Below, piece by piece: positions 9,010 to 47,874 of a stretch of DNA of 64,000 nt. This stretch comes from Candidatus Goldiibacteriota bacterium (GTDB lineage Bacteria; Oederibacteriota; PGYV01; DSYL01). The number at the start of each line of letters is the position of its first letter. The stretch's first letter is position 1. The stretch covers positions 137,889-201,888 of the forward strand of contig JAGNJD010000001.1 in NCBI GenBank assembly GCA_018000835.1, in the 5' to 3' direction. The translations under genes were made by a program, and so were the position numbers. The notes beneath the pieces are model-generated. The model had not been told where the DNA came from, did no database searches, and saw only the letters and a list, made by a program, of their open reading frames with translations.

Positions 9010-9741
9010 TCAGCGTCCTCTTTGATTTGCAATGATACTTTTTAATTGGTCAATCGTGAGCATAGGGTCTTTTTTATGAATAATACTATGGCAATTTGAA
9101 CATACTGGGACTACTTTTTTAAGTGCTTCATCTACCGATTGCTTCCTTCCAGTGCCATCAACAAGATGGATTGGTTCCGTGTGATGAATGACAATGAAAT
9201 CCTTACCCACGCCATCATATAAATCTTCAAAATTAAAACCACAAGCACAACATGCTATTGGGTTACCGCTTTGTTTTAATTGTCTAATTTTAAGTATGCG
9301 TAATTTCGTTGAACGTGCCCTTTGTTTTCTTGTTGTTTCCGTTACGTTGCCTTCTTCAATAACCAAATTTTTGTAATCGTTATCCATCTCGTCTTCTCTT
9401 TGTTTCGGAGAAAATCCTTGTGAGATTAAAGACATATATGTTCCATTGTTGTTTTGTAAAAACAATTGACCTTTTTTCGTTAACTTATATTTTTTAGTCC
9501 TATAACTATATGTTACAAGTCCGTTAGTAAAAATTCTTCTCCTCCGAAATTTCGTAAAGTTTCCAATACGCTGGTGAAGCATTATCTCGCCTTTGCGTTT
9601 TTTACTTCTTTGAGCAGAAGTGCCAGTAGGATTAAGACGTTGTAGAAGTGTAGTTTTAATAGAACTCATTGGTAGTCCAGAAGGATTTTCAGATAAAACC
9701 TTCATAAAAGGAATTTCCAAATCTTTTTCAAAATAATCCAT
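9010..9741 (-). CDS. HNH-family endonuclease, candidate restriction partner of the Dam-like methyltransferase.
   Basis: C-terminal C-x2-C...HH...C-x2-C-H arrangement (IACCACGF...VIHHTEPIHL...VPVCSNCHSIIHKK). It is convergent with the methyltransferase and only 3 bp away, tail-to-tail. Confidence 0.65.
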   Translation of the reverse strand: MDYFEKDLEIPFMKVLSENPSGLPMSSIKTTLLQRLNPTGTSAQRSKKRKGEIMLHQRIGNFTKFRRRRIFTNGLVTYSYRTKKYKLTKKGQLFLQNNNGTYMSLISQGFSPKQREDEMDNDYKNLVIEEGNVTETTRKQRARSTKLRILKIRQLKQSGNPIACCACGFNFEDLYDGVGKDFIVIHHTEPIHLVDGTGRKQSVDEALKKVVPVCSNCHSIIHKKDPMLTIDQLKSIIANQRGR

Positions 9742-9998
9742 TTTTGCCCTCCTATTAACCCAAGAATTATATTATCATTAAAACACACTTAATAATATAT
9801 ATAATACGGTGGCCCCGTTTGTCAAGACCGATTTTTCCAGAATTTAAGGTGGATACCAAGCTAACGGAAGCAACCTCCTTTCTCATCGGATTTTTGTAAC
9901 TTGACCGCCTGAAATTTCTCTCTAGGATGTCTTCTGTTGCGACTTCTTGAATCAGGTAAGGGGCCAGCACCCCGGACTTTTTCTCTAACTGCGGCATC

Positions 9999-10846
9999 TC
10001 AGGCAGCATTCTTTGCCTGCCTCTTGGCTTTGACTGCTGCGCCAAAATAAACTTCTGCCGGAGTACGATAATCAAGAGCCTGATGCAAGCGGATATTGTT
10101 ATGAATTTTGAAATACTTTTTAAGCCCGGACTCGTATTCAAACATTGTTTCGTACCCCTTTGGATAAACGTCATCATACTTTACACTCCGCCACAGCCTC
10201 TCTACAATGATGTTGTCGTGAGATCTGCCCTTACCATCCATGCTAATCTTTATCTTCTTGCCTTCAAGTATGTCAGTAAACGTTTTGTCCGTGAACTGAG
10301 AGCCCTGATCCGTGTTGAAATATTCCGGCTTGCCGTGTTTGTCAAGCGATTCCAGCAAAGCTGCCTTGCAGAAACTGCTGTCGAGGCTGTAAGACAAAAC
10401 ATACCTGCTGTGCCAGTCCACTATCGCCACAAGATACGCATATCCACGCCTAAGGCGTATGTACGTAATATCTGCTGCCCAAACCACGTTAGAACGCTTT
10501 ATTTTCAACCCTTTTAGCAGATACGGGTACTTCTTGTGCACCTTATTCGGAATACTTAGCCTTTTTTTCGGGCATATTGCCTCTATTCCCATGATTTTCA
10601 TCATACTGCAGGTTTTTTGCGTCCTATTTTTATCCCGTGCAGTTTATACAACGCCTTGGATATCTTTCTGGCTCCGTAGAACGGGCATTCTGTGTATATT
10701 TCGTCTATCCTGTCAAGGATCACTTTATCTAACTCTTTCATCGGCCGTTTTTCATAGTACAGCACCGATTTACATACTCCCAGCAGTTTGCATTGCCTGC
10801 TTATGCTGAAATTCTTGTCGTATGGGTCAACAAACATCCTCCTCAC
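9999..10846 (-). pseudogene. IS3-family transposase OrfB (integrase/rve core), split by a 1-nt frameshift in an A6/T6 run.
   Basis: Two ORFs are in different frames: 10601-10846 (MRRMFVDPYDKNFSISRQCKLLGV...HGIKIGRKKPAV*) and 9999-10604 (MMKIMGIEAICPKKR...DDE core). Inserting one A in the homopolymer (plus strand 10613-10618) restores ...GRKKTCSMMKIMGIEAI... Confidence 0.6.
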
Positions 10847-11130
10847 AACAGGTTCAACTTTTTTAAATTTTTTTTTAACCAGTTTATCTCCAGATCCTTC
10901 TCGCCGATCAGCCTCAGATACTCATCTTCTCGCGATTCCCGTTCTTTTTCTTCCTTGTTGTTCGGTTTCGCAAACAAACTCGCTGCGTTCAGAAGTAAAT
11001 GTTTCTTCCATTCCGTCACTTTATTCGGATGAACTCCGTATTTCGCCGCAACCTCGCTGATTCTTACGCCTTCCCGTGATGCTTCAAGTGCTACCTTTGC
11101 CTTAAAACTCTCCTCATAACGTTTTCACAT
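10843..11130 (-). pseudogene. IS3-family transposase OrfA; the initiator ATG is followed directly by an in-frame TGA.
   Basis: Minus-strand translation after the stop reads KRYEESFKAKVALEASREGVRISEVAAKYGVHPNKVTEWKKHL...LKKNLKKLNLL*, typical of IS3 OrfA. An AGGAGG RBS precedes ATG-TGA at 11130-11125, so codon 2 is a stop. Confidence 0.55.
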
Positions 11131-11191: not shown

Positions 11192-11692
11192 TCAGTCCGA
11201 AAAACCTAGGCCATTATACCCATCGACCAGGGCATACTGCTTAAAAATTGAGACCTCAAAAAAACGCTTTGCCTTCTCCACAAACTTCTTAAACACAATA
11301 CTGAACCTCAAACGTATGCCAAGTTCTACGCTATTAACCGCCTTTAATATCTGTTTGTTCTCGCTTTCAGAATCTTCCGCACTTTGTGAATACGCCTTGC
11401 TGTACAACGGCGTCAACTCTTCGCCTTTTACTTCCGCCCCGATGACTTCGCATATCCAGTATCCATTCACAATCTCTTTTCTTGAACCATCATACACCCT
11501 GTCCATATTTTCCATTTTTTTCGCAAAATCTTTCCTTATATCGCTCAAATCTAACGCATGCACCGTATCTTTTTTTATCCTTCGGACTCCTTTTTCAAGC
11601 AACCGCATATTCAGTTTGTCTGTCAGATCTTCTCTTGCTAATTGATGCGTCAGCCGTATTTCCGTCTTTATCAGTTTTATTTTTTCACACAA
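11192..11692 (-). CDS. Hypothetical protein whose 3' end is truncated by the IS3 insertion.
   Basis: The 166-aa ORF terminates at a TGA located inside the IS3 terminal IR (11192-11194). No domain recognised. Confidence 0.3.
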   Translation of the reverse strand: MCEKIKLIKTEIRLTHQLAREDLTDKLNMRLLEKGVRRIKKDTVHALDLSDIRKDFAKKMENMDRVYDGSRKEIVNGYWICEVIGAEVKGEELTPLYSKAYSQSAEDSESENKQILKAVNSVELGIRLRFSIVFKKFVEKAKRFFEVSIFKQYALVDGYNGLGFSD

Positions 11693-34420: not shown

Positions 34421-34759
34421 ATGAAAAAAATTACGGTAATAATACCACCAAACAAATTTGATAATTTAAAGAAAAAACTGATAGAAGACGGAGTAAAAGG
34501 CATTACAATAACCAGAGTTGATGGTTTTGGATACGAAAAAAAACAGATGGACGTTTTGAAAAACAAGGAAATACTAATTGAATCGCTGCCAAAAATAAAA
34601 CTGGAAATCGTATTAAAAGATAACGAAGTTGACGACGTTATAAACAGCATAATAGCCGTAACAAGAACAGGCAGATTGGGCGATGGTAAGATATTTGTAT
34701 CGGAAATAACCGACGTCATAAGAATTAGAACCGGCGAGAGAAAAGAAGATGCGTTATAA
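34421..34759 (+). CDS. P-II (GlnB/GlnK family) signal-transduction protein homolog.
   Basis: The 112-aa product aligns with GlnB along its whole length: MKKI.VIIPP.KFD.L...L...GV.G.T.T.V.GFG...; ...RTGRLGDGKIFVSEITDVIRIRTGE. The T-loop lacks the Tyr51 uridylylation site. Confidence 0.75.
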   Translation: MKKITVIIPPNKFDNLKKKLIEDGVKGITITRVDGFGYEKKQMDVLKNKEILIESLPKIKLEIVLKDNEVDDVINSIIAVTRTGRLGDGKIFVSEITDVIRIRTGERKEDAL

Positions 34760-35146: not shown

Positions 35147-35770
35147 ATGCAAAACGAAAAACTTACCGACATGCAAAGAGATGCATTAAAAGAACTTGGA
35201 AATATTGGTGCAGGAAGCGCGGCAACCGCACTTTCCCAGCTTCTTGGCAAAGACATTAAATTAAACGTTCCTGACGTAACGATCATTCCAATTGAAAAAG
35301 TAAACGAAAAAATAGCAAAACACCAGCAGATAATAGCAGCCGTTTATTTGCGTATCTATGGTGAAATACAGGCAAGAGCACTCCTTATTCTTCCACAGGA
35401 TAAAATATTTTATATAATTGATCTTCTTATGAAAAAAAAACTGGGCACCACGAGAGAATTCGGTGAAAATGAACAATCGGCAATAAAAGAAATCGGTAAC
35501 ATAATTATCTCTTCGTATCTGAATGCTCTTGCAAAATTCATCGGCTTAAATTCAGTTCCTTCCGTACCTGCCCTTGCCGTTGACATGGCAGATGCCATTA
35601 TACAAACCATTTCTGCAGAACTTGCAGAAGTAGGCCCCGATGCTTTTCTTATAGAAAACGAAATGGTAGAAAAAGAAATAGATCTTTCTACCACTCTTTT
35701 AATATTGCCTGAAATGACTTCTATGAAAAAAATATTAAAAGCATTAAATGATACCATAAAAGGTTCATAA
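35147..35770 (+). CDS. cheC: CheC-family CheY-P phosphatase.
   Basis: Two internal repeats carry the E-x2-N motif (ALKELGNIGAGSAATALS and AIKEIGNIIISSYLNALA). Confidence 0.8.
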   Translation: MQNEKLTDMQRDALKELGNIGAGSAATALSQLLGKDIKLNVPDVTIIPIEKVNEKIAKHQQIIAAVYLRIYGEIQARALLILPQDKIFYIIDLLMKKKLGTTREFGENEQSAIKEIGNIIISSYLNALAKFIGLNSVPSVPALAVDMADAIIQTISAELAEVGPDAFLIENEMVEKEIDLSTTLLILPEMTSMKKILKALNDTIKGS

Positions 35771-38378: not shown

Positions 38379-39443
38379 TTGGAACCCATAAAAGTTCTTG
38401 TGGTTGACGATTCTTCGTTTATGCGTAAAATCATTCCACAACTGCTTGAAGAAGACAGCGAAATAAAAGTGATAGACTCGGCCAGGGACGGCATGGAAGC
38501 GCTGAAAAAAATACAACGGTTAAGGCCGGACGTCGTAACTCTGGACATTGAAATGCCGGGTATGAACGGTCTGGAGACGCTATGCAAAATAATGAAAGAT
38601 TATCCAATGCCGGTCATAATGCTTTCGGCCTATACGCCGGAAGGTGCTGAAATAACGTTAAAAGCTCTCGAATATGGTGCAATTGATTTTATAAGAAAAC
38701 CTTCCGGAGAAATATCCCTTGACATCAAAAAAGTCCAGAAAGAACTCATAGAAAAAATTAAAATTGCAAAAACTATAGACCTCTCAAAACTCAAATGCAT
38801 AACAAAAAAAGAATTCACGATTGATAAGTCTTCCGGATTAAATGCCGAAATGGTAAAAACTCTGGTTATAATCGCTGCTTCAACCGGCGGTCCCAGAGCA
38901 CTCTATGAAATACTGCCAAAACTTGAAAAGAAAAATTTTCCGGTTTCTTTTCTTGTCATCCAGCACATGTCTTCCGGTTTTACAAGCACGCTTGCATCGC
39001 GTCTTAATTCAATTTCCATGCTAAACGTAAAAGAAGCCGAAGATGGTGAGGAAATACTGCCTGAAACAATTTACATAGCCCCTGGGAATTTTCATATGGG
39101 AATTAAAAACATCAATGACAAAATTTACGTTTTGTTAAACCAGGAACCGGCAATGCATGGAGTAAGGCCGGCTGCCGACATGACAATGGTATCGGTTGCA
39201 AAAAATTTTAACGGCAGCATAATTTCCGTAATACTTACGGGCATGGGAAAAGACGGAACAGCCGGTGCAGAAAAAATAAAAGAAAAAGGCGGCAGGGTAA
39301 TAGCCCAGGATAAGGAAACCAGCGTAATTTTTGGAATGCCGAGGATTGCAATTGAAAAAGGCGTAGTCGACGTCGTAGCACCGCTCCAGAAAATTTCTGA
39401 AATCATTAATGTGGAAATTGAAAAAATGCTGGAGAAAAAATGA
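38379..39443 (+). CDS. cheB: Protein-glutamate methylesterase CheB (REC plus methylesterase).
   Basis: N-terminal REC domain (VLVVDDSSFMR...VTLDIEMPGMNG). The C-terminal domain has the catalytic Ser (IAASTGGP), His (IQHMSSGF) and Asp (GMGKDG). Confidence 0.9.
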   Translation: MEPIKVLVVDDSSFMRKIIPQLLEEDSEIKVIDSARDGMEALKKIQRLRPDVVTLDIEMPGMNGLETLCKIMKDYPMPVIMLSAYTPEGAEITLKALEYGAIDFIRKPSGEISLDIKKVQKELIEKIKIAKTIDLSKLKCITKKEFTIDKSSGLNAEMVKTLVIIAASTGGPRALYEILPKLEKKNFPVSFLVIQHMSSGFTSTLASRLNSISMLNVKEAEDGEEILPETIYIAPGNFHMGIKNINDKIYVLLNQEPAMHGVRPAADMTMVSVAKNFNGSIISVILTGMGKDGTAGAEKIKEKGGRVIAQDKETSVIFGMPRIAIEKGVVDVVAPLQKISEIINVEIEKMLEKK

Positions 39444-41425
39444 ACATAGAAAATTACAAAGACGTTTTTCTGGAAGAGGCGGAAGAAAATATTAAAAATT
39501 TTAACATATCTCTCGTAATTTTTGAAAAAAACACCGATGATTTAACACCGTTAAACGAACTTTTCAGAATTGCGCATACAATAAAAGGCATGGCTGCAAC
39601 AATGGGTTATGACAGACTTACTGAATTTACGCATAACCTCGAAGAAATCCTTGATAACATCAGAAACGGGTCGTTACCTGTGTCCAGAAATATAATAAAC
39701 ATTCTCTATAAAAGCATTGATGCCATCCAGGAATTTATCGAAAATATAAAAGAAAAAAACTCTGATTTTGCCGGTAACACAAAGGAAATAATGGCAGCAA
39801 TCAGGGACGTATTGAAATATTCCGGTAAAAAAGAAATAAAAGAAGAAACGAAAGCAGAACAGGAATCACCGGAAGAAAAAATCGTTATTCCCGAAAACGT
39901 CATTGAAGAAGCACATTCACGCGGACTTAAGGTTTACATAGTAAAAGTTTACGTATCCCATTCATGCACCTTTAAAAACGTCAGAGCATTTATGATTGTC
40001 CGGAACCTTTCTGAAAAAGGTGAAATTATTAATTCCATACCTTCATCAAAAAACATAGAAGACGGAAATTTTGAGAAAATGATACAATTTGGTTTTGTTT
40101 CAAAGTTAGAAATTGCAGACATAGAAAAAGCAGTCATGAAAATATCCGAGATTGAAAAAGTTGAGGTTTTTCCAGTGGAAAAGCCGGTGCAGATGGAAAA
40201 AAACACAGAAGAAATTTCGGAAGAAGAAACATCAAGGGAGAAAAAAATTTCTGCCATTCCGCAGAATGTGCGCATAAACGTTGAAAAAATAGATGCTTTG
40301 ATGAACCTGGTCGGCGAACTCGTCATAACCAAAATTCGTCTGGACCAGATAACAAAAGAGAAAAAATTTCAATTGCTCAGAGAAGCAGTGGACGAGTTTG
40401 ACAGAATAATAAACCAGTTGCAAACAGAGGTAACGGACGTACGTATGCTCCCGGTTTCTCATATTTTTGAAAAATATCCGCGCATCATAAGAGACCTGGC
40501 CGTTGAATCCGAAAAGGAAATTGATTGTGAAATAGTCGGCGGCGACATAGAACTGGACAGAACCGTCCTGGAAGAAATAAACGAACCACTTCTTCACCTG
40601 GTGCGTAACGCGGTTTCGCACGGCATAGAAACCCCTGAGCAGCGCGAAATAGCAGGTAAACCCAAAAAAGGTCTCATAAAAATCGAAGCGAAAAGGGAAA
40701 AAAATTCCGTTCTGATAGAGGTTTCTGACGACGGCAGGGGAATATCGCTGGAAAAAGTAAGAAAAAAAGCAATAGAAAAAAACATCATCACGGAAGAACG
40801 TGCAAAATATATGAACGACGACGAGATAATAAATCTGATTGCAATACCAGGATTTTCAACGTCAGAAAAAGTTGATAAAATATCAGGAAGAGGCGTAGGC
40901 GTAGACGTCGTAAAAACAAAGGTTGAAAGGTTTGGAGGGCTTTTAAAAATAGAGAGTTACGAAGGTGAAGGGTCAAAATTCATAATGAAACTTCCTTTGA
41001 CGCTCGCGATTATCCAGTCGTTGCTCATAAAATCCGGAAAATCAACTTTTGCTCTGCCGGTTACGCACGTCGCGGAAATACTCGAAATAAACCGTGCAGA
41101 ACTTAAAAAAATACAAAAAAAAGACGTTATAATATTAAGAGGTGAAATCATTCAGGTCGTTCCTCTTTGTGAATTATTACACAGAAAAAAAACGGAAGAA
41201 AAAGAAATTATGAACCTTGTTGTGGTTGAATCAAGGGACAAACGCATAGCAATAGAAGTTGACGAGGTTTTATGTCAGCAGGAAATAGCAATTAAAAGTC
41301 TGGGAGATTTTTCAAAATATGCAAAAGGTTTTTCCGGGGTTACGATTCTTGGAGACGGCAGCATAAGCCTGATTCTAGACATACAGGCCCTGCTTGAAGG
41401 GATGGCCGTAAGCACAAACGCTTAA
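39440..41425 (+). CDS. cheA: Chemotaxis histidine kinase CheA.
   Basis: P1/Hpt domain with the phosphorylatable His (IAHTIKGMAATMGY). P4 HATPase (NAVSHGIE...DDGRGI...GRGVGVDVV). C-terminal P5 CheW-like domain. Confidence 0.9.
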   Translation: MNIENYKDVFLEEAEENIKNFNISLVIFEKNTDDLTPLNELFRIAHTIKGMAATMGYDRLTEFTHNLEEILDNIRNGSLPVSRNIINILYKSIDAIQEFIENIKEKNSDFAGNTKEIMAAIRDVLKYSGKKEIKEETKAEQESPEEKIVIPENVIEEAHSRGLKVYIVKVYVSHSCTFKNVRAFMIVRNLSEKGEIINSIPSSKNIEDGNFEKMIQFGFVSKLEIADIEKAVMKISEIEKVEVFPVEKPVQMEKNTEEISEEETSREKKISAIPQNVRINVEKIDALMNLVGELVITKIRLDQITKEKKFQLLREAVDEFDRIINQLQTEVTDVRMLPVSHIFEKYPRIIRDLAVESEKEIDCEIVGGDIELDRTVLEEINEPLLHLVRNAVSHGIETPEQREIAGKPKKGLIKIEAKREKNSVLIEVSDDGRGISLEKVRKKAIEKNIITEERAKYMNDDEIINLIAIPGFSTSEKVDKISGRGVGVDVVKTKVERFGGLLKIESYEGEGSKFIMKLPLTLAIIQSLLIKSGKSTFALPVTHVAEILEINRAELKKIQKKDVIILRGEIIQVVPLCELLHRKKTEEKEIMNLVVVESRDKRIAIEVDEVLCQQEIAIKSLGDFSKYAKGFSGVTILGDGSISLILDIQALLEGMAVSTNA

Positions 41426-41437
41426 TCAGGAGAAAAA

Positions 41438-42061
41438 ATGGAAAATAAACAGGAACTAAATCTTACGGAAGCGCAGATTGATGCATTAAAAGAGGTTGGA
41501 AACGTTGGTGCAGGTCACGCTGCAACCGCTCTATCCCAGCTTATAAAGAAAAAAATAATGATAACTGTCCCGGAAGTAAAAATAATAGGGTTGCAGGAAG
41601 TTCCGGGCTTAATAGGCGATTCCCAATCCCTTGTTGCAGGCGTCATTATGAACGTCCTGGGAGACATAACAGCTAAAATACTTTTGCTGCTTACCAGGGA
41701 AAGTGCACTATCCCTTGCCGACATGCTTTTACAAAAAAAGCCCGGCACGACAAAAGTTTTATCCGAGATAGGAAACTCTGCAATAAAGGAAACCGGAAAC
41801 ATTTTATCCGGTGCATACATGAATGCGTTAAACGAATTTCTGGGATTAATACTTCTGCCATCGGTACCGACGCTTGTTTTTGACATCGCAGGCGCGGTTC
41901 TTTCTGCCGTATCCGACGGTTTCGAAGGTGTATCGTCAAAAATATTGTCAATTGAAACGCAATTTTCAGAGACAAACGATAAAATAATAAAAGGCTATTT
42001 GTTGCTCATTCCTGACGTTTTGTCTGTAAGCGTCATTTTAGATGCAATAAAAGTAAAATAA
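41438..42061 (+). CDS. CheC-family phosphatase, paralog 2 (CheC/CheX/FliY-type).
   Basis: IDALKEVGNVGAGHAATALS...AIKETGNILSGAYMNAL. It is ~75% identical to the product of 45747-46373. Confidence 0.75.
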   Translation: MENKQELNLTEAQIDALKEVGNVGAGHAATALSQLIKKKIMITVPEVKIIGLQEVPGLIGDSQSLVAGVIMNVLGDITAKILLLLTRESALSLADMLLQKKPGTTKVLSEIGNSAIKETGNILSGAYMNALNEFLGLILLPSVPTLVFDIAGAVLSAVSDGFEGVSSKILSIETQFSETNDKIIKGYLLLIPDVLSVSVILDAIKVK

Positions 42062-42106
42062 AAAAGCAGCGGGTTTAAACGCAAAAAATAAATAATGGGA
42101 GCATAA

Positions 42107-44221
42107 ATGTTGACTTTTGCACTTGACATAGGAACCAGAAAAGTAGCAGGTATTTTAGGTCTGCAACAGGGAGAAAAAATAAAAATCGTTGATGCCGTGG
42201 TAAAAGAACATAATAAAAGATCCATGTATGACGGCCAGATACATAACATAGAAGAAGTTACTGCAATTGTTCGTTCAATAAAATCAGAACTTGAGGAAAA
42301 AAACAAAATAAAACTTTCAACGGTGTCTTCGGCACTTGCAGGCAGGGACCTTTATATCCAGACGTCATTTTCTGAAATAAACAAAAAGGGCGAAATAACA
42401 AAGGAAGACGTTTCTTTTGCCGAAATGGAAAGCGTAAGAAAGGCATGTGAGCAGTTAACCGAAAAACAAAAGAGGGAATATTACTGCGTTGGTTATTCTA
42501 CGGTTGCGTATCAGATAGACGGAGTCCCGATAAAAAATCCTTTATACCAGTTTGTCAGGAATAGTTTCAGTGTTGAAACCATTGCAACGTTTTTACCAAG
42601 GATGACTCTCGAATCAATGCTTGCCGTTTTGAAAAACAGTGGACTTGAAATAGAAACGATAACGCTGGAACCGATAGCAGCATTAAACGTAACAATTCCC
42701 GACGACATGCGGCTTTTAAACCTTGCGCTCGTTGACGTCGGAGCAGGCACGTCAGACGTTGCCATAACCGACAAAGGTAAAATAATTTCCTATGGCATGA
42801 TTCCTAAGGCAGGCGACGAAATAACAGAAGAAATATGTTCAAAATTTCTCGTTGACTTTAACGAAGCAGAAAAAATAAAAAGAACCATATCAGAAAAAAC
42901 AATTGTTGAATCGTCCAACATATTTAACAAAAAAATATCGGTCACGTCTGACGACTTCACGGCAGCGGTGGAAGAAAAAGTCAATGAAATTGCAAAGGAG
43001 ATTGCAGATACCATACTACAGTTAAACAAAAAACAACCTGCTGCAGTCGTAATGGTTGGCGGCGGAAGCGGGCTGAATTTGTTAAAAGAAAAAATTGCAG
43101 ATAATCTTGGTCTGCCTCATAGCAGGGTTGGCAGCAGGACCCCGCTTAACATATTAAATCTTGAAAACCTGCCTGAGAGGTTACTTGGCACGGAAGCCAT
43201 AACGCCGCTTGGCATTCTCGACGCCGCGGTGTTCAAACGCGGACTCGGGTTCATAGACGTTTATTTGAACGAAGAAAAAGAACACATAATAAACCTTGAA
43301 CAGGAAATAAAAGTCATTGACGTTCTTACAAACCGTGGAATTGACATGAAAAAACTTTACGGCAGGCCGGGCAATGCCATCACTTTTACCTTAAACGGGG
43401 AATTAAAAATAATAAGAGGCGAAAAAGCAGAACATGCAAAAATATTCATAAACAACGACGAAAAAGACATCTATTCAACCGTAAAGCAGGGTGACAAAAT
43501 ATTCATAACAAACGCAAAAGACGGTATGGACGCATCGGTTACCGTAAAACAGGTTATTTCACAAAACGACGTTCTGACCGTCTCAATAAACGGCGAAAAT
43601 CACACAATTTATCCCGACGTTTACGTTGACGAAAAACAGGTGACAGACATAAACGAAACGATAAACGACAGGGCAGACGTTTACGTCAGAAAAACAGATG
43701 CGTTAAAAGACGTCCTGCTAAAAGCAGGTCTTTCAATCGGGAAAACCGAAGAGAGGGACATCATAATCACGGTTAACAACGAACCGCTCACGCTAAAGCA
43801 GAGAAACTTCCGGCTTAAAGTAAATGGCATGGACGTTTCGCCGGATTACAAAGTAAAAAACATGGACAAAATAGAATATAAGGAAACTCCGTCGTATTAT
43901 AAAATAAAAGACATAATAAAAAACAGAAAAACTACGATTACGGTCAAAATAAACGGGAAGCCGTTTGAAATAGAACATACGGGCAGGGACATATACATGA
44001 ACGGAAAAAAGGCAGATGAAAACGAGTTCATAATAAACGGTGCAAACATAGAAGTAAAAATGAGCGAAGTAAGACCAATGCTTTCGTCAATTTTCCGGGT
44101 ATACCCCATTGACAGGGAACAGATGAGAGGCAGGATGCTCGAAATAAAATTAAACGGTGAAAAAGCAGGTTATACGACTGAAATCCGCGACGGTGACGAA
44201 ATAGAAATTCTGTTTGTATGA
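42107..44221 (+). CDS. FtsA/PilM-like actin-fold (ASKHA) ATPase with a ~330-aa C-terminal array of ThiS/MoaD-like beta-grasp-type repeats.
   Basis: N-terminus FALDIGTRKVAGILGL (phosphate-1), LALVDVGAGTSDVAI (phosphate-2) and VVMVGGGSGL (adenosine motif). The domain order resembles FtsA, including an SHS2-like insert. The C-terminal half holds ~9 repeats of a hydrophobic-x-hydrophobic-NGE motif and ends ...LNGEKAGYTTEIRDGDEIEILFV, which resembles the ThiS C-terminus but lacks the terminal GG. Confidence 0.5.
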   Translation: MLTFALDIGTRKVAGILGLQQGEKIKIVDAVVKEHNKRSMYDGQIHNIEEVTAIVRSIKSELEEKNKIKLSTVSSALAGRDLYIQTSFSEINKKGEITKEDVSFAEMESVRKACEQLTEKQKREYYCVGYSTVAYQIDGVPIKNPLYQFVRNSFSVETIATFLPRMTLESMLAVLKNSGLEIETITLEPIAALNVTIPDDMRLLNLALVDVGAGTSDVAITDKGKIISYGMIPKAGDEITEEICSKFLVDFNEAEKIKRTISEKTIVESSNIFNKKISVTSDDFTAAVEEKVNEIAKEIADTILQLNKKQPAAVVMVGGGSGLNLLKEKIADNLGLPHSRVGSRTPLNILNLENLPERLLGTEAITPLGILDAAVFKRGLGFIDVYLNEEKEHIINLEQEIKVIDVLTNRGIDMKKLYGRPGNAITFTLNGELKIIRGEKAEHAKIFINNDEKDIYSTVKQGDKIFITNAKDGMDASVTVKQVISQNDVLTVSINGENHTIYPDVYVDEKQVTDINETINDRADVYVRKTDALKDVLLKAGLSIGKTEERDIIITVNNEPLTLKQRNFRLKVNGMDVSPDYKVKNMDKIEYKETPSYYKIKDIIKNRKTTITVKINGKPFEIEHTGRDIYMNGKKADENEFIINGANIEVKMSEVRPMLSSIFRVYPIDREQMRGRMLEIKLNGEKAGYTTEIRDGDEIEILFV

Positions 44222-44240: not shown

Positions 44241-45566
44241 ATGCGGGCTTTGCTTATAAATCCATGGATATACGATTTTAAATGCCATGATTTCTGGATA
44301 AAACCACACGGTTTTCTGCGGATTGCTTCCATGTTAAAAAATAACGGCTTTGCCATAGATTTTATTGATTGCATGGACAGGTTTGACCCTGACATGAAGG
44401 ACTACAAAATAAAAGACGATGAATATGGCAAAGGAAAATTTTTTTACGAAGAAATTGAAAAACCAGACGTTTATTCAAAAATACCCAGAAAATATAAAAG
44501 ATACGGAACCCTGGTTTCGATTTTTAAAAATAAACTGGAGAAATTACAAAAGCCGGACGTTATTTTAATTACGTCTTCAATGACGTATAATTATGAAGGC
44601 GTTTTTTACGCAATTGATTTGTTAAAAGAAAAATTTGAAAACGTAAAAATAGTTCTGGGCGGTATTTATGCAACGCTTTGCAATGACCATGCAAAAAAAC
44701 GTTCAAAAGCAGATTTTGTGTGGAAAGGCCGGGTTAACGATACTTTTTTCAAACTGCTGAAACATTATACCGGCAAGGACATAATCTGTGATGAAAACAT
44801 AAACGAAGTTCTTCCGGATTATTCTTTTTATAAAAACGTGCCTTATGCTGCCGTGCGTTTTACTTTTGGATGTCCATTTAACTGCACATACTGTGCCGTA
44901 AAAAGTTTTAACGATGATTATTATCAGAGAGACGTGCAAAATATTATTTATGAACTAAAAAAATATTACGAGTCGGGCATTTCAGACGTTGCGTTTTATG
45001 ACGATGCATTGCTTTATAAAAATTTTTACGTAAAATCGATATTAAGAAAAATCATAAAAGAAAAACTGAAATTCCATTTCCACACTCCAAACGGATTACA
45101 CGCTTCATACGTTGACGCTGATATGGCAGAACTTCTAAAAGAGTCCGGTTTTGTTGACCTGCGCATCTCCCTTGAGACGTCTGATTATGAACTACAGAAA
45201 AAAACCGGAGGCAAAGTAACCGACGAAAATTTCATGCAATCCGTTAAAAATCTGAAAAACGCAGGTTTTAAGGGCTCTGACATAGGTGTCTATATACTCG
45301 CAGGACTGCCACATCAGAAATACGATTCTGTTTTAAAAGACGTTCATTATCTTATGGATAAAAAAGTAAAAATAAAAATTGCAAATTATTCTCCAATTCC
45401 AGGCACCGTTGACTTTTTGGAATTAAGGGAAGATATCAGGGCACAGATTGCAGCAGAACCGCTGAAACAAAACGAACTTTATTTTCTTACGATAAATAAT
45501 GATTTTACCTGGGAAGACAACGAAAAAATAAAAAAAATGGTGAATGACCACAATCATTCGTTGTAA
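44241..45566 (+). CDS. Radical SAM protein with an N-terminal B12-binding-like (Rossmann) domain.
   Basis: CPFNCTYC (CxxxCxxC) lies at ~aa 212. The N-terminus LLINPWIYDF...PHGFLRIASMLKNNGFAIDFIDC is typical of class-B / B12-rSAM enzymes. 441 aa. Confidence 0.7.
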   Translation: MRALLINPWIYDFKCHDFWIKPHGFLRIASMLKNNGFAIDFIDCMDRFDPDMKDYKIKDDEYGKGKFFYEEIEKPDVYSKIPRKYKRYGTLVSIFKNKLEKLQKPDVILITSSMTYNYEGVFYAIDLLKEKFENVKIVLGGIYATLCNDHAKKRSKADFVWKGRVNDTFFKLLKHYTGKDIICDENINEVLPDYSFYKNVPYAAVRFTFGCPFNCTYCAVKSFNDDYYQRDVQNIIYELKKYYESGISDVAFYDDALLYKNFYVKSILRKIIKEKLKFHFHTPNGLHASYVDADMAELLKESGFVDLRISLETSDYELQKKTGGKVTDENFMQSVKNLKNAGFKGSDIGVYILAGLPHQKYDSVLKDVHYLMDKKVKIKIANYSPIPGTVDFLELREDIRAQIAAEPLKQNELYFLTINNDFTWEDNEKIKKMVNDHNHSL

Positions 45567-45746
45567 CGTTGTAAAAAAATACTTTAATAATTCCCTTCTG
45601 ACAGGGACCGCCTGAATGGACGGGATGTTATTATATAGTAACGAATGCCATGTGTTAGATGAAAAAATTTCTGTATAAATCCCTTTCTGCCCATCTCTGC
45701 TTTTAACATATTTACTTTATGAATGATTAGATATATAATATAAAAC

Positions 45747-46373
45747 ATGGATGAACGGCAGGAACTTACACTCACAGAAGCACAAATAGATGCGTTAAAA
45801 GAAGTAGGCAACATAGGTGCAGGACATGCCGCAACTGCACTCTCACAGATGGTAAACAAAAAAAAGATAATGATAACCGTACCTGAAGTAAAAGTAGTTG
45901 AAAAAGATAAAATTTTTAATTACACTGATGAACCCGATGCCCTGTCAACCGGAGTGATTATGAACGTGCTTGGTGACGTCGTATCAAAAATTATAATGCT
46001 TATAAAAAAAGAAAGTGCGTTATACCTTGCCGACCTGTTACTTAAAAAAAAGCCGGGCACGTCAAAATTACTTACAGAGATGGAAAATTCGGCAGTAAAA
46101 GAGATAGGCAACATTTTATCCGGTGCATACATGAATGCTTTAAATGAATTCCTCGGCCTGATGCTTCTGCCTTCTGTTCCAAACCTTGTTTTTGATACTT
46201 CTGCTGCAATACTTACTGCGGTTTTGGACAGTTTTGAAGACGTATCTTCAAAAATACTTTCCATTGAAACCCAGTTTATTGAGACAAACGAAAAAATTTT
46301 AAAAGGATACCTGCTTTTAATGCCAGACACTTCATCGGTAAAAATAATTCTTGATGCAATAAAGGTAAAATAA
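45747..46373 (+). CDS. CheC-family phosphatase, paralog 3 (near-duplicate of 41438-42061).
   Basis: IDALKEVGNIGAGHAATALS...AVKEIGNILSGAYMNALNEFLGL...ILDAIKVK. Own TATAAT at 45733-45738; no obvious RBS. Confidence 0.75.
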   Translation: MDERQELTLTEAQIDALKEVGNIGAGHAATALSQMVNKKKIMITVPEVKVVEKDKIFNYTDEPDALSTGVIMNVLGDVVSKIIMLIKKESALYLADLLLKKKPGTSKLLTEMENSAVKEIGNILSGAYMNALNEFLGLMLLPSVPNLVFDTSAAILTAVLDSFEDVSSKILSIETQFIETNEKILKGYLLLMPDTSSVKIILDAIKVK

Positions 46374-46446
46374 ATTTTTTGTATATCAAAAAAACAGGGA
46401 AATTTCATAAATTGTCCCTGCATATAAAATATATGATATAGGTATA

Positions 46447-47874
46447 GTGATGAAAAAAATTTCTGATTATAAATTTGAAATAGAAAAAAAACATGATATG
46501 AACGTCCCCGGTATAATTTATGCCAGTGAAAAACTTTTAAAGGACATAGGAAACGAACCGCTTATGCAGGTTGAAAACGTTGCATGTCTGCCCGGCATTC
46601 AGAAATATTCAATTGCCATGCCTGACATACACTGGGGATATGGATTTCCGATAGGCGGAGTAGCAGCATTTGATTACGACGATGGAATAATCTCGCCTGG
46701 CGGGGTTGGTTATGACATAAATTGCGGAGTAAGAATGATAAAAACAAACCTTGATTATGACGAAATCAGGGATAAAATTGACGACCTTGCAAATGGTTTG
46801 TTTAATGCAGTGCCGTCGGGCGTCGGCAGCAGTGGTGCCATAGTGCTTACAAAAAAGGAATTATTTAAAGTCCTGAAAAAAGGTCTGCTCTGGGCAGTAA
46901 GCAACGGTTACGGCAGTTCAACAGACGTTAACAGGGCAGAGGAAGGCGGCGTCCTAAATTTTGATTCTGATACGGATGACGTAAGCAGCAGGGCAATTGA
47001 ACGCGGACTTGACCAGTTGGGAACCCTCGGCGCCGGTAACCATTTTCTTGAAATACAAAAAGTAGATACTGTTTTCCTGCCTTCCATTGCAGATAAACTG
47101 GGTATATTTAAAAATCAGATTATTATCATGTTTCACACCGGTTCGCGCGGTCTTGGATACCAGATTTGTGACGATTATCTGCATTTGTTCAGGTCTGTCT
47201 TCCAGAAATACGGCATAAAATTAAAAGACCAGCAGTTGATAAGCGTTCCTATAACGTCAAAAGAAGGAAAAAAATATTTTAATGCAATGAGCGGTGCGGC
47301 AAATTATGCATGGGCAAACAGACAGGTAATAACAGGACTCATTGAAAATACTTTTGAAAATTTTTTTAAAAAAAGTGCCTCGTCTCTCGGTATAAGCGTT
47401 ATCTACGACGTTTCACATAACATTGCAAGGATGGAGGAACATGAAGTTGACGGAAAAATGAAAAAATTGTGCGTTCACAGAAAAGGCGCTACCCGTGCAC
47501 TTCCAAAAGGGCATGAAATGCTGCCAGAGGAGTTAAGAGACATCGGCCAGCCGGTTCTTGTGCCCGGAGATATGGGAAGGGCTTCTTTTATTTTAAAGGG
47601 AGAAGAAAATTCAAAGGAGGCATTTTATTCCTGCGCCCATGGTGCGGGAAGGATGCTGTCCCGCAGTCAGGCATTAAAGCAGGGAAGAAACAGAAATCTG
47701 TTTGATGAGATTGCAGGCCAGGGCGTTGTTGTAAAAGTCCGCAGTAAAAAACTTCTCGCAGAAGAAGCTCCGTTTGCATACAAAGATGCAGAAGATATAA
47801 CCGGAGTCGTGCAAAAAGCAGGCCTTGCTTCCCGTGTCGCAAAATTAAAACCAGTTGCAGTCATAAAAGGATAG
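46447..47874 (+). CDS. rtcB: RNA-splicing/repair ligase RtcB.
   Basis: The RtcB metal-binding blocks are present: DIHWGYGFPIGG, GYDINCGVRM, GAGNHFLEIQ, HTGSRGLG, CHRKGATRA. Confidence 0.85.
   Translation: MMKKISDYKFEIEKKHDMNVPGIIYASEKLLKDIGNEPLMQVENVACLPGIQKYSIAMPDIHWGYGFPIGGVAAFDYDDGIISPGGVGYDINCGVRMIKTNLDYDEIRDKIDDLANGLFNAVPSGVGSSGAIVLTKKELFKVLKKGLLWAVSNGYGSSTDVNRAEEGGVLNFDSDTDDVSSRAIERGLDQLGTLGAGNHFLEIQKVDTVFLPSIADKLGIFKNQIIIMFHTGSRGLGYQICDDYLHLFRSVFQKYGIKLKDQQLISVPITSKEGKKYFNAMSGAANYAWANRQVITGLIENTFENFFKKSASSLGISVIYDVSHNIARMEEHEVDGKMKKLCVHRKGATRALPKGHEMLPEELRDIGQPVLVPGDMGRASFILKGEENSKEAFYSCAHGAGRMLSRSQALKQGRNRNLFDEIAGQGVVVKVRSKKLLAEEAPFAYKDAEDITGVVQKAGLASRVAKLKPVAVIKG

Follow-up and report, generated by a model that had tools for sequence, protein, structure and literature searches.

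Why should a radical SAM enzyme be encoded at the end of a chemotaxis operon, between an FtsA-like ATPase and a third CheC protein? The question arises from 64,000 nucleotides of a Candidatus Goldiibacteriota genome (this whole stretch is referred to here as the window). A preliminary description had placed the radical SAM gene (rSAM) within the che locus, as part of a two-gene insert bracketed by a recent cheC duplication, and had likened its setting to the ThiH/ThiS and MoaA/MoaD systems. In the window, the genes run on the forward strand in the order CheR, TPR, CheW, TPR, P-II, CheY, CheC1, CheD, MCP, CheW, CheY, CheB, CheA, CheC2, the 704-residue FtsA-like protein (FtsAL), rSAM, CheC3 and RtcB. 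The features on which the argument turns are the following.

35147–35770, + strand: cheC1, a distant paralogue inside the operon, followed by cheD (Pfam CheC, E 3.1e-24)
39440–41425, + strand: cheA (Pfam Hpt, P2, H-kinase_dim, HATPase_c and CheW), which precedes CheC2 and the FtsA-like gene in relatives, too
41438–42061, + strand: cheC2, which represents the ancestral post-cheA copy (Pfam CheC, E 7.6e-23; Shine-Dalgarno sequence AGGAG)
42107–44221, + strand: FtsA-like ASKHA ATPase, 704 aa (Pfam FtsA, PilM and ThiS), terminal gene of the ancestral che operon
44241–45566, + strand: rSAM, 441 aa, ATG start, with a B12-binding-type N-terminal domain; unclassified, widespread family
45711–45739, + strand: promoter-like TTTACT-17-TATAAT (scan match 10/12), ending 7 nt before the cheC3 ATG
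45747–46373, + strand: cheC3, 208 aa, an old, clade-specific cheC2 duplicate (Pfam CheC, E 9.3e-25, 86.7 bits against a cutoff of 22)
46447–47874, + strand: rtcB, encoding an RNA ligase (Pfam RtcB, E 1.3e-163), kept downstream of rSAM in the clade

rSAM thus lies where it had been placed, between the gene with the ThiS-like tail and cheC3. Further upstream, a P-II (GlnB-like) gene (34421–34759) is embedded in the che operon between genes for a TPR protein and CheY, a position kept in many Goldbacteria loci (e.g., L011-L013, L018-L020, L023, L024, L026 and L035; also L048).

The rSAM reading frame is a genuine gene, with relatives at 72–75% identity in several metagenomes and a confident AlphaFold model built on 51 homologues (pLDDT 93.8). 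A partial rSAM and a CheC3 with 100% identity to those of the window bear the label Goldiibacteriota/Goldbacteria. Its assignment to the Radical SAM superfamily, made earlier from a CxxxCxxC motif, is borne out by the motif itself (C211-x3-C215-x2-C218, invariant in 51 family members), by a Radical_SAM match above the gathering score (PF04055, residues 206–370, E 3.9e-26, 92.6 bits) and by a partial TIM-barrel core fold. The Rossmann-like, B12-binding-type N-terminal domain is likewise present (Pfam B12-binding, residues 104–169, E 3.9e-10, 40.1 bits against a cutoff of 32.1), which is the domain hallmark of class B enzymes. The folds closest to the rSAM model are those of AprD4, TsrM, RimO and MgmA, with AprD4 as the top structural match; a sequence search of the PDB gave weak matches to the core only (RimO, E 7.6e-6). 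AprD4 (6fd2), TsrM (6wte), MgmA (9ccb) and CysS (9n1b) are class B-like radical SAM enzymes of solved structure with a B12-binding domain, to which rSAM is 14–17% identical in sequence. AprD4, however, operates without cobalamin and, as it is the best match and carries the same domain, the fold of rSAM does not establish B12 dependence. Sequence and model therefore confirm a B12-binding-type architecture and do not thereby confirm cobalamin use. An Rfam scan of the entire 64,000-nt window returned no match, and hence no cobalamin riboswitch.

None of the NCBIfam/TIGRFAM subfamily models reached its curated cutoff with rSAM (the best 25 of 28 matches all fall far below), the top match being TIGR04479 (PhpK family) with 70.3 bits against a cutoff of 600. 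The expectation that rSAM does not belong to a named housekeeping family thus held. Assignment to the MiaB/RimO/MtaB methylthiotransferases was considered and rejected, as TIGR00089 scored 41.7 bits against a cutoff of 251, and as rSAM has only two near-invariant N-terminal cysteines (C44 and C147) in place of the three that bind the auxiliary cluster in MiaB/RimO, and a C-terminus (residues 390–441) that is helical in the model, unlike the C-terminal TRAM (β-barrel) domain of these enzymes. The family itself is large: at least 120 matches were found, the 120th still at E 1e-102 and about 40% identity, with members in Omnitrophota, Planctomycetota, Nitrospirota, Poribacteria, Armatimonadota and other phyla.

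The FtsA-like gene upstream had been counted as the other member of the two-gene insert. In an AF2 model (pLDDT 86), residues 1–375 of the FtsA-like protein form an FtsA-like ATPase, whose best PDB match is Escherichia coli FtsA (E 2.4e-29, TM 0.83), and the remainder folds into several small β-rich, β-grasp-like modules. An alignment of the protein was scanned against one genome per species, yielding 80 loci. In 41 of these 80, the gene is an immediate neighbor of cheA/cheC, arranged either as CheA-CheC-FtsAL or as CheA-FtsAL-CheC-CheC-CheD-CheY. These 41 loci come from Goldbacteria/FCPU426, Elusimicrobia, Omnitrophota and unclassified lineages, and in all Goldbacteria loci recovered the gene comes after cheA-cheC. 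In the non-che loci, which come from Thermotogota and from Bacillota (mostly Lachnospiraceae), che genes are absent from the surrounding 10 kb, and the gene stands behind PolA-CoaE in 21 of these 38 loci. The FtsA-like gene is thus an ancestral, widely conserved member of the che operon and was not inserted. Searches of the literature yielded no relevant work on either Goldbacteria chemotaxis or che operons that encode FtsA-like proteins.

The part of the insertion hypothesis that concerns rSAM fared better. A synteny comparison had been proposed to distinguish an ancestral gene order from an insertion, and the order proved not to be universal. The close relatives L001, L009, L010, L093, L171, L172 and L173, whose proteins are 72–93% identical, share the order CheA-CheC2-FtsAL-rSAM-(CheC3)-RtcB with the window, its rSAM-(CheC3)-RtcB portion being seen in L001, L010, L092, L093, L172 and L173. 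In more distant Goldbacteria/FCPU426 loci (proteins approximately 52–61% identical, FtsAL 52–60%), the operon is intact from P-II to CheA-CheC2-FtsAL and is then followed by unrelated genes; rSAM, CheC3, RtcB or other non-che genes of the window were absent after FtsAL in all 14 distant loci whose sequence extends 3.4 kb or more beyond that gene. rSAM, CheC3 and RtcB are accordingly the sole new genes after the che operon, and they occur there only in one clade approximately 80% identical to the window. rSAM is therefore a lineage-specific arrival at this site.

The same comparisons place rSAM at the variable right-hand edge of the operon rather than within the che locus. Although the FtsAL-rSAM adjacency is kept in all 8 clade loci that span the junction, the spacing varies from 19 nt in the window and 26–65 nt in L009, L010, L171, L172 and L173 to 500 nt in L093 and 840 nt in L001. 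The gap in L001 (9163–10000) holds a degenerate RAYT-like ORF (REP-associated tyrosine transposase) flanked by several GC-rich, REP-like hairpins, and that in L093 a gene for a 94-residue nucleotidyltransferase. On the other side of rSAM, L092 and L093 have rSAM and RtcB proteins that are 99–100% identical, yet a gene of about 1.6 kb separates the two in L093 only (9326–11000, compared to 1093–1179 in L092); it encodes 482 residues on the minus strand. The rSAM-RtcB junction in this pair gives the impression of an indel hot spot that was active very recently. At the opposite end, L173 (1–2030) carries a BatA/VWA gene and an 86-residue CheW-domain fragment upstream of CheC2 in place of a full cheA, which suggests operon decay or a chimeric assembly.

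Where did rSAM come from? On the 1.2 Mb contig_12779, approximately 100 kb separate the che operon from an rSAM orthologue (54% identical), whose surroundings read DinB-rSAM-732 aa-DUF4921-rotamase-LppC; the same context recurs in L002 and L004. rSAM is 48–60% identical to its distant orthologues, and FtsAL and CheA are 52–64% identical to theirs. As the divergence of rSAM thus parallels that of FtsAL and CheA, vertical descent with relocation is favored over import. Import would entail that rSAM, CheC3 and RtcB arrived together from another organism as a horizontally acquired island that inserted after the che operon. The GC content at 44.0–46.5 kb (0.33–0.36), slightly lower than over the FtsA-like gene (0.38–0.41), and the susceptibility of the junctions in relatives to small mobile insertions would fit such an event. 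However, these GC values lie inside the normal range of the window (0.28–0.43), and neither an integrase nor a tRNA gene nor a flanking repeat could be detected nearby. The nearest rSAM matches outside the clade, moreover, include proteins on contigs (1,235,064 bp and 402,803 bp) that bear Goldbacteria-type che/FtsAL genes, and CheC3 is most closely related to the CheC2 proteins of Goldbacteria. We consider import as an island quite improbable.

As to the third CheC, the preliminary description had correctly singled out CheC2 and CheC3 as the closest pair. They are 70.5% identical in amino acid sequence (75% in nucleotide sequence), as compared to 42% between CheC1 and CheC2 and 40% between CheC1 and CheC3. 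Orthologues of cheC1 occupy the same position in all Goldbacteria loci, and distant Goldbacteria have one CheC after cheA, which shares 74–80% identity with CheC2. CheC3, in turn, is a lineage-specific duplicate of CheC2, as had been supposed, but the duplication is not recent. The two genes have diverged to a dN of 0.20 and a dS of about 1.9, and CheC3 orthologues of sister species are 79–83% identical, i.e., as diverged as other genes. When cheC2 and cheC3 were compared by blastn with 500 nt on either side, only the coding sequences matched (41450–42062 with 45759–46374; 71% over 621 nt), and no similarity was detected between the flanks. A recent tandem duplication with common flanks was thus rejected; the duplication is old, with both copies under purifying selection. 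Nor does the cheC pair mark the boundaries of an insert, given that four clade members have rSAM-RtcB without CheC3. ORFs antisense to cheC3 (45920–46423, − strand) and to cheC2 (41515–41886, − strand) are seemingly conserved in relatives as well; they are shadow ORFs, not genes.

All three CheC proteins of the window match Pfam CheC and in this respect resemble the paralogous CheC/CheX/FliY CheY-P phosphatases of Thermotoga and Bacillus; with the Thermotogales CheC model they score 168–170 bits, below its cutoff of 250. Unlike in that paralogy, CheC3 is encoded outside the operon behind an unrelated gene, is preceded by a conserved promoter-like element of its own and is variably present in close relatives. 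It is found in the window, L001, L091 and L171 and is missing from L010, L092/L093, L172 and L173, where rSAM is followed by RtcB or by the unrelated 482-residue gene. In the window, L001 and L091, both D/S-x3-E-x2-N phosphatase motifs, the active-site motifs of the CheC family, are intact in CheC3, and these three aligned orthologues have a one-residue insertion in common.

The timing of the duplication bears on what CheC3 can tell about the arrival of rSAM. If CheC3 were an ancient paralogue that predates the Goldbacteria radiation and was lost outside the clade, it would be uninformative in this regard. A neighbor-joining (NJ) tree of CheC proteins, in which CheC3, on a long branch, is placed as the sister group of all Goldbacteria CheC2 proteins and not inside the clade, could be read in this way, and dS is saturated. 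Long-branch attraction of a fast-evolving duplicate would, however, give the same basal placement. Furthermore, in a search of 5.8 billion proteins, CheC3-type proteins (208 aa) appeared only at 79–100% identity, followed by a gap down to CheC2 types at 71% or less; by this measure CheC3 is restricted to the window's clade. The common one-residue insertion and about 17 other Goldbacteria che loci without a third CheC within reach also speak against an origin before the Goldbacteria radiation. We therefore regard an ancient paralogue as unlikely and read the basal placement as probably reflecting accelerated evolution after duplication within the clade, although an older duplication followed by losses could produce it.

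Within the clade, the best NJ tree obtained with FtsAL and rSAM concatenated nests the taxa that lack CheC3, as one group, in a CheC3-bearing grade, which argues for an ancestral CheC3 that was later lost. Bootstrap support was only 59% (NJ; FtsAL, rSAM and CheC2), the deep branches of the clade being poorly resolved, and the bootstrapped NJ trees gave no firm resolution between one and two losses.

The previously noted TATAAT in front of cheC3, and the lack of a clear Shine-Dalgarno sequence there, were both recovered: the element TTTACT-17-TATAAT at 45711–45739 immediately precedes the gene, and no Shine-Dalgarno sequence was found upstream of it. Promoter-like matches in the region do not exceed chance overall (27 found, 20.3 ± 4.0 expected). 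An element of the form TTTAC(T/A)-17-TATAAT nevertheless precedes CheC3 in three species, i.e., in the window, in L001 (~11390–11450) and in L091 (~1570–1633). It was not evident upstream of RtcB in CheC3-less relatives. In L001 and L091, the element is followed by a leader of approximately 39–45 nt. As this leader is missing in the window, a leaderless CheC3 transcript is plausible there, with the ATG of cheC3 as a candidate start of leaderless translation.

Could rSAM nonetheless serve the chemotaxis-like system next to which it now resides? One proposal had been that it acts together with the ThiS-like modules of its neighbor in the manner of ThiH/ThiS or MoaA/MoaD, in which a radical SAM enzyme is likewise coupled to a β-grasp sulfur carrier. 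We rejected this proposal. The FtsA-like protein ends in ...EIEILFV, with F703 invariant in 24 Goldbacteria homologues and nearly invariant in a 40-sequence alignment, and a C-terminal Gly-Gly is absent from it and from all homologues aligned in the two sets, so that it is not a ThiS/MoaD-type carrier. The two genes also do not co-occur: rSAM is adjacent in 2 of the 80 FtsA-like loci (L009 and L010, both in the window's clade), and the FtsA-like gene is missing from about 80 rSAM loci outside the clade. Finally, rSAM is neither MoaA- nor ThiH-like, the MoaA model scoring 22 bits against a cutoff of 231.

A broader form of functional recruitment would make rSAM, perhaps together with CheC3, an accessory of the Che/FtsA-like module in this clade, for instance by modifying the β-grasp tail, CheC3 or a receptor. 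In the window, rSAM starts 19 nt past the stop codon of the FtsA-like gene and is preceded by an SD-like AAGGGG, and no terminator-like site was found between the two genes. Judging from this layout, rSAM is probably co-transcribed with the FtsA-like gene and thus with the che operon. The similarly short gaps in five relatives, the FtsAL-rSAM adjacency in every clade member and the position of CheC3 directly after rSAM in four lineages would also suit recruitment. Among approximately 90 rSAM and 80 FtsA-like loci, however, the two genes are linked in a single shallow clade only; this linkage is loosened by the insertions in L001 and L093, and CheC3 has proved dispensable in four lineages. In addition, the divergence of rSAM from its distant orthologues, being similar to that of FtsAL and CheA, gives no sign of a functional change. 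On balance, recruitment appears very doubtful.

The wider family offers no alternative partner. When the genes within 5 kb were clustered across about 90 family loci, the commonest neighbors encoded an MBL-fold hydrolase (12/90), MnmE (9/90), an ABC ATPase (7/90) and XerC/D (6/90), those besides the MBL hydrolase representing housekeeping synteny (MnmE, YidC, Jag, XerC/D). No dominant functional partner emerged from this survey, and che genes stand beside rSAM only in the window's clade. A 734-residue protein encoded downstream of rSAM in L002 was considered as a cryptic FtsA-like partner and rejected, as BLASTP revealed no similarity. Two loci can be mentioned for their contents. In the Omnitrophota locus L089 (6079–9714), the rSAM orthologue is flanked by rsmA (ksgA) on one side and by genes for OsmC and an RsmB/F-like methyltransferase on the other, just after surA-pdxA, and on the Goldbacteria-like contig L002 (15151–21359), genes for rotamase, pdxA and rsmA lie 4–10 kb downstream of rSAM. 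These contexts give a weak hint of an RNA-modification neighborhood. As the family is widespread and its members lie near a che operon in one small Goldbacteria group only, nothing suggests that radical SAM chemistry and chemotaxis are connected here; apart from the probable read-through in the window, no observation ties the enzyme to this process.

Based on these results, we suggest the following course of events. The che operon would ancestrally have ended in cheA-cheC and the FtsA-like/β-grasp gene. On the branch leading to one Goldbacteria clade of genus or family rank, a chromosomal rearrangement would then have placed the lineage's own rSAM and rtcB directly downstream of the operon end. 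A copy of cheC2, the present CheC3, would have landed between rSAM and rtcB with its own promoter, diverged quickly and later been lost in part of the clade. rSAM would be a stand-alone, SAM-cleaving radical enzyme that acts on a general cellular substrate, with methylation, dehydration or another radical reaction being possible. We consider it likely that rSAM and rtcB were relocated in this manner, with the cheC duplicate between them, and that rSAM does not act on chemotaxis proteins. The gene orders, the distribution of the family, the fold, the age of the duplication and the missing flank homology are shown by the data, whereas the direction and mechanism of the rearrangement, the housekeeping role of rSAM and its co-transcription with the FtsA-like gene in the window are what we infer.

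A more far-reaching possibility is that the relocated rSAM, co-transcribed with the FtsA-like/β-grasp gene, was co-opted to modify post-translationally a component of a chemotaxis-like pathway with an actin-like ATPase output. We deem this a long shot; if true, it would for the first time connect Che signaling with radical SAM chemistry.

The position of rSAM beside the che operon is an ordinary, lineage-specific change in gene order. In itself the finding matters little, amounting to the juxtaposition, in one lineage, of a widespread, uncharacterized radical SAM gene with a che operon and an old, dispensable cheC duplicate. The rSAM family, which is maintained at 40–45% identity across many uncultured phyla and falls outside all curated subfamilies, is nevertheless a reasonable target for enzyme discovery. 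The more interesting lead is the FtsA-like ATPase with its β-grasp repeats, a conserved part of the che operon in several phyla.
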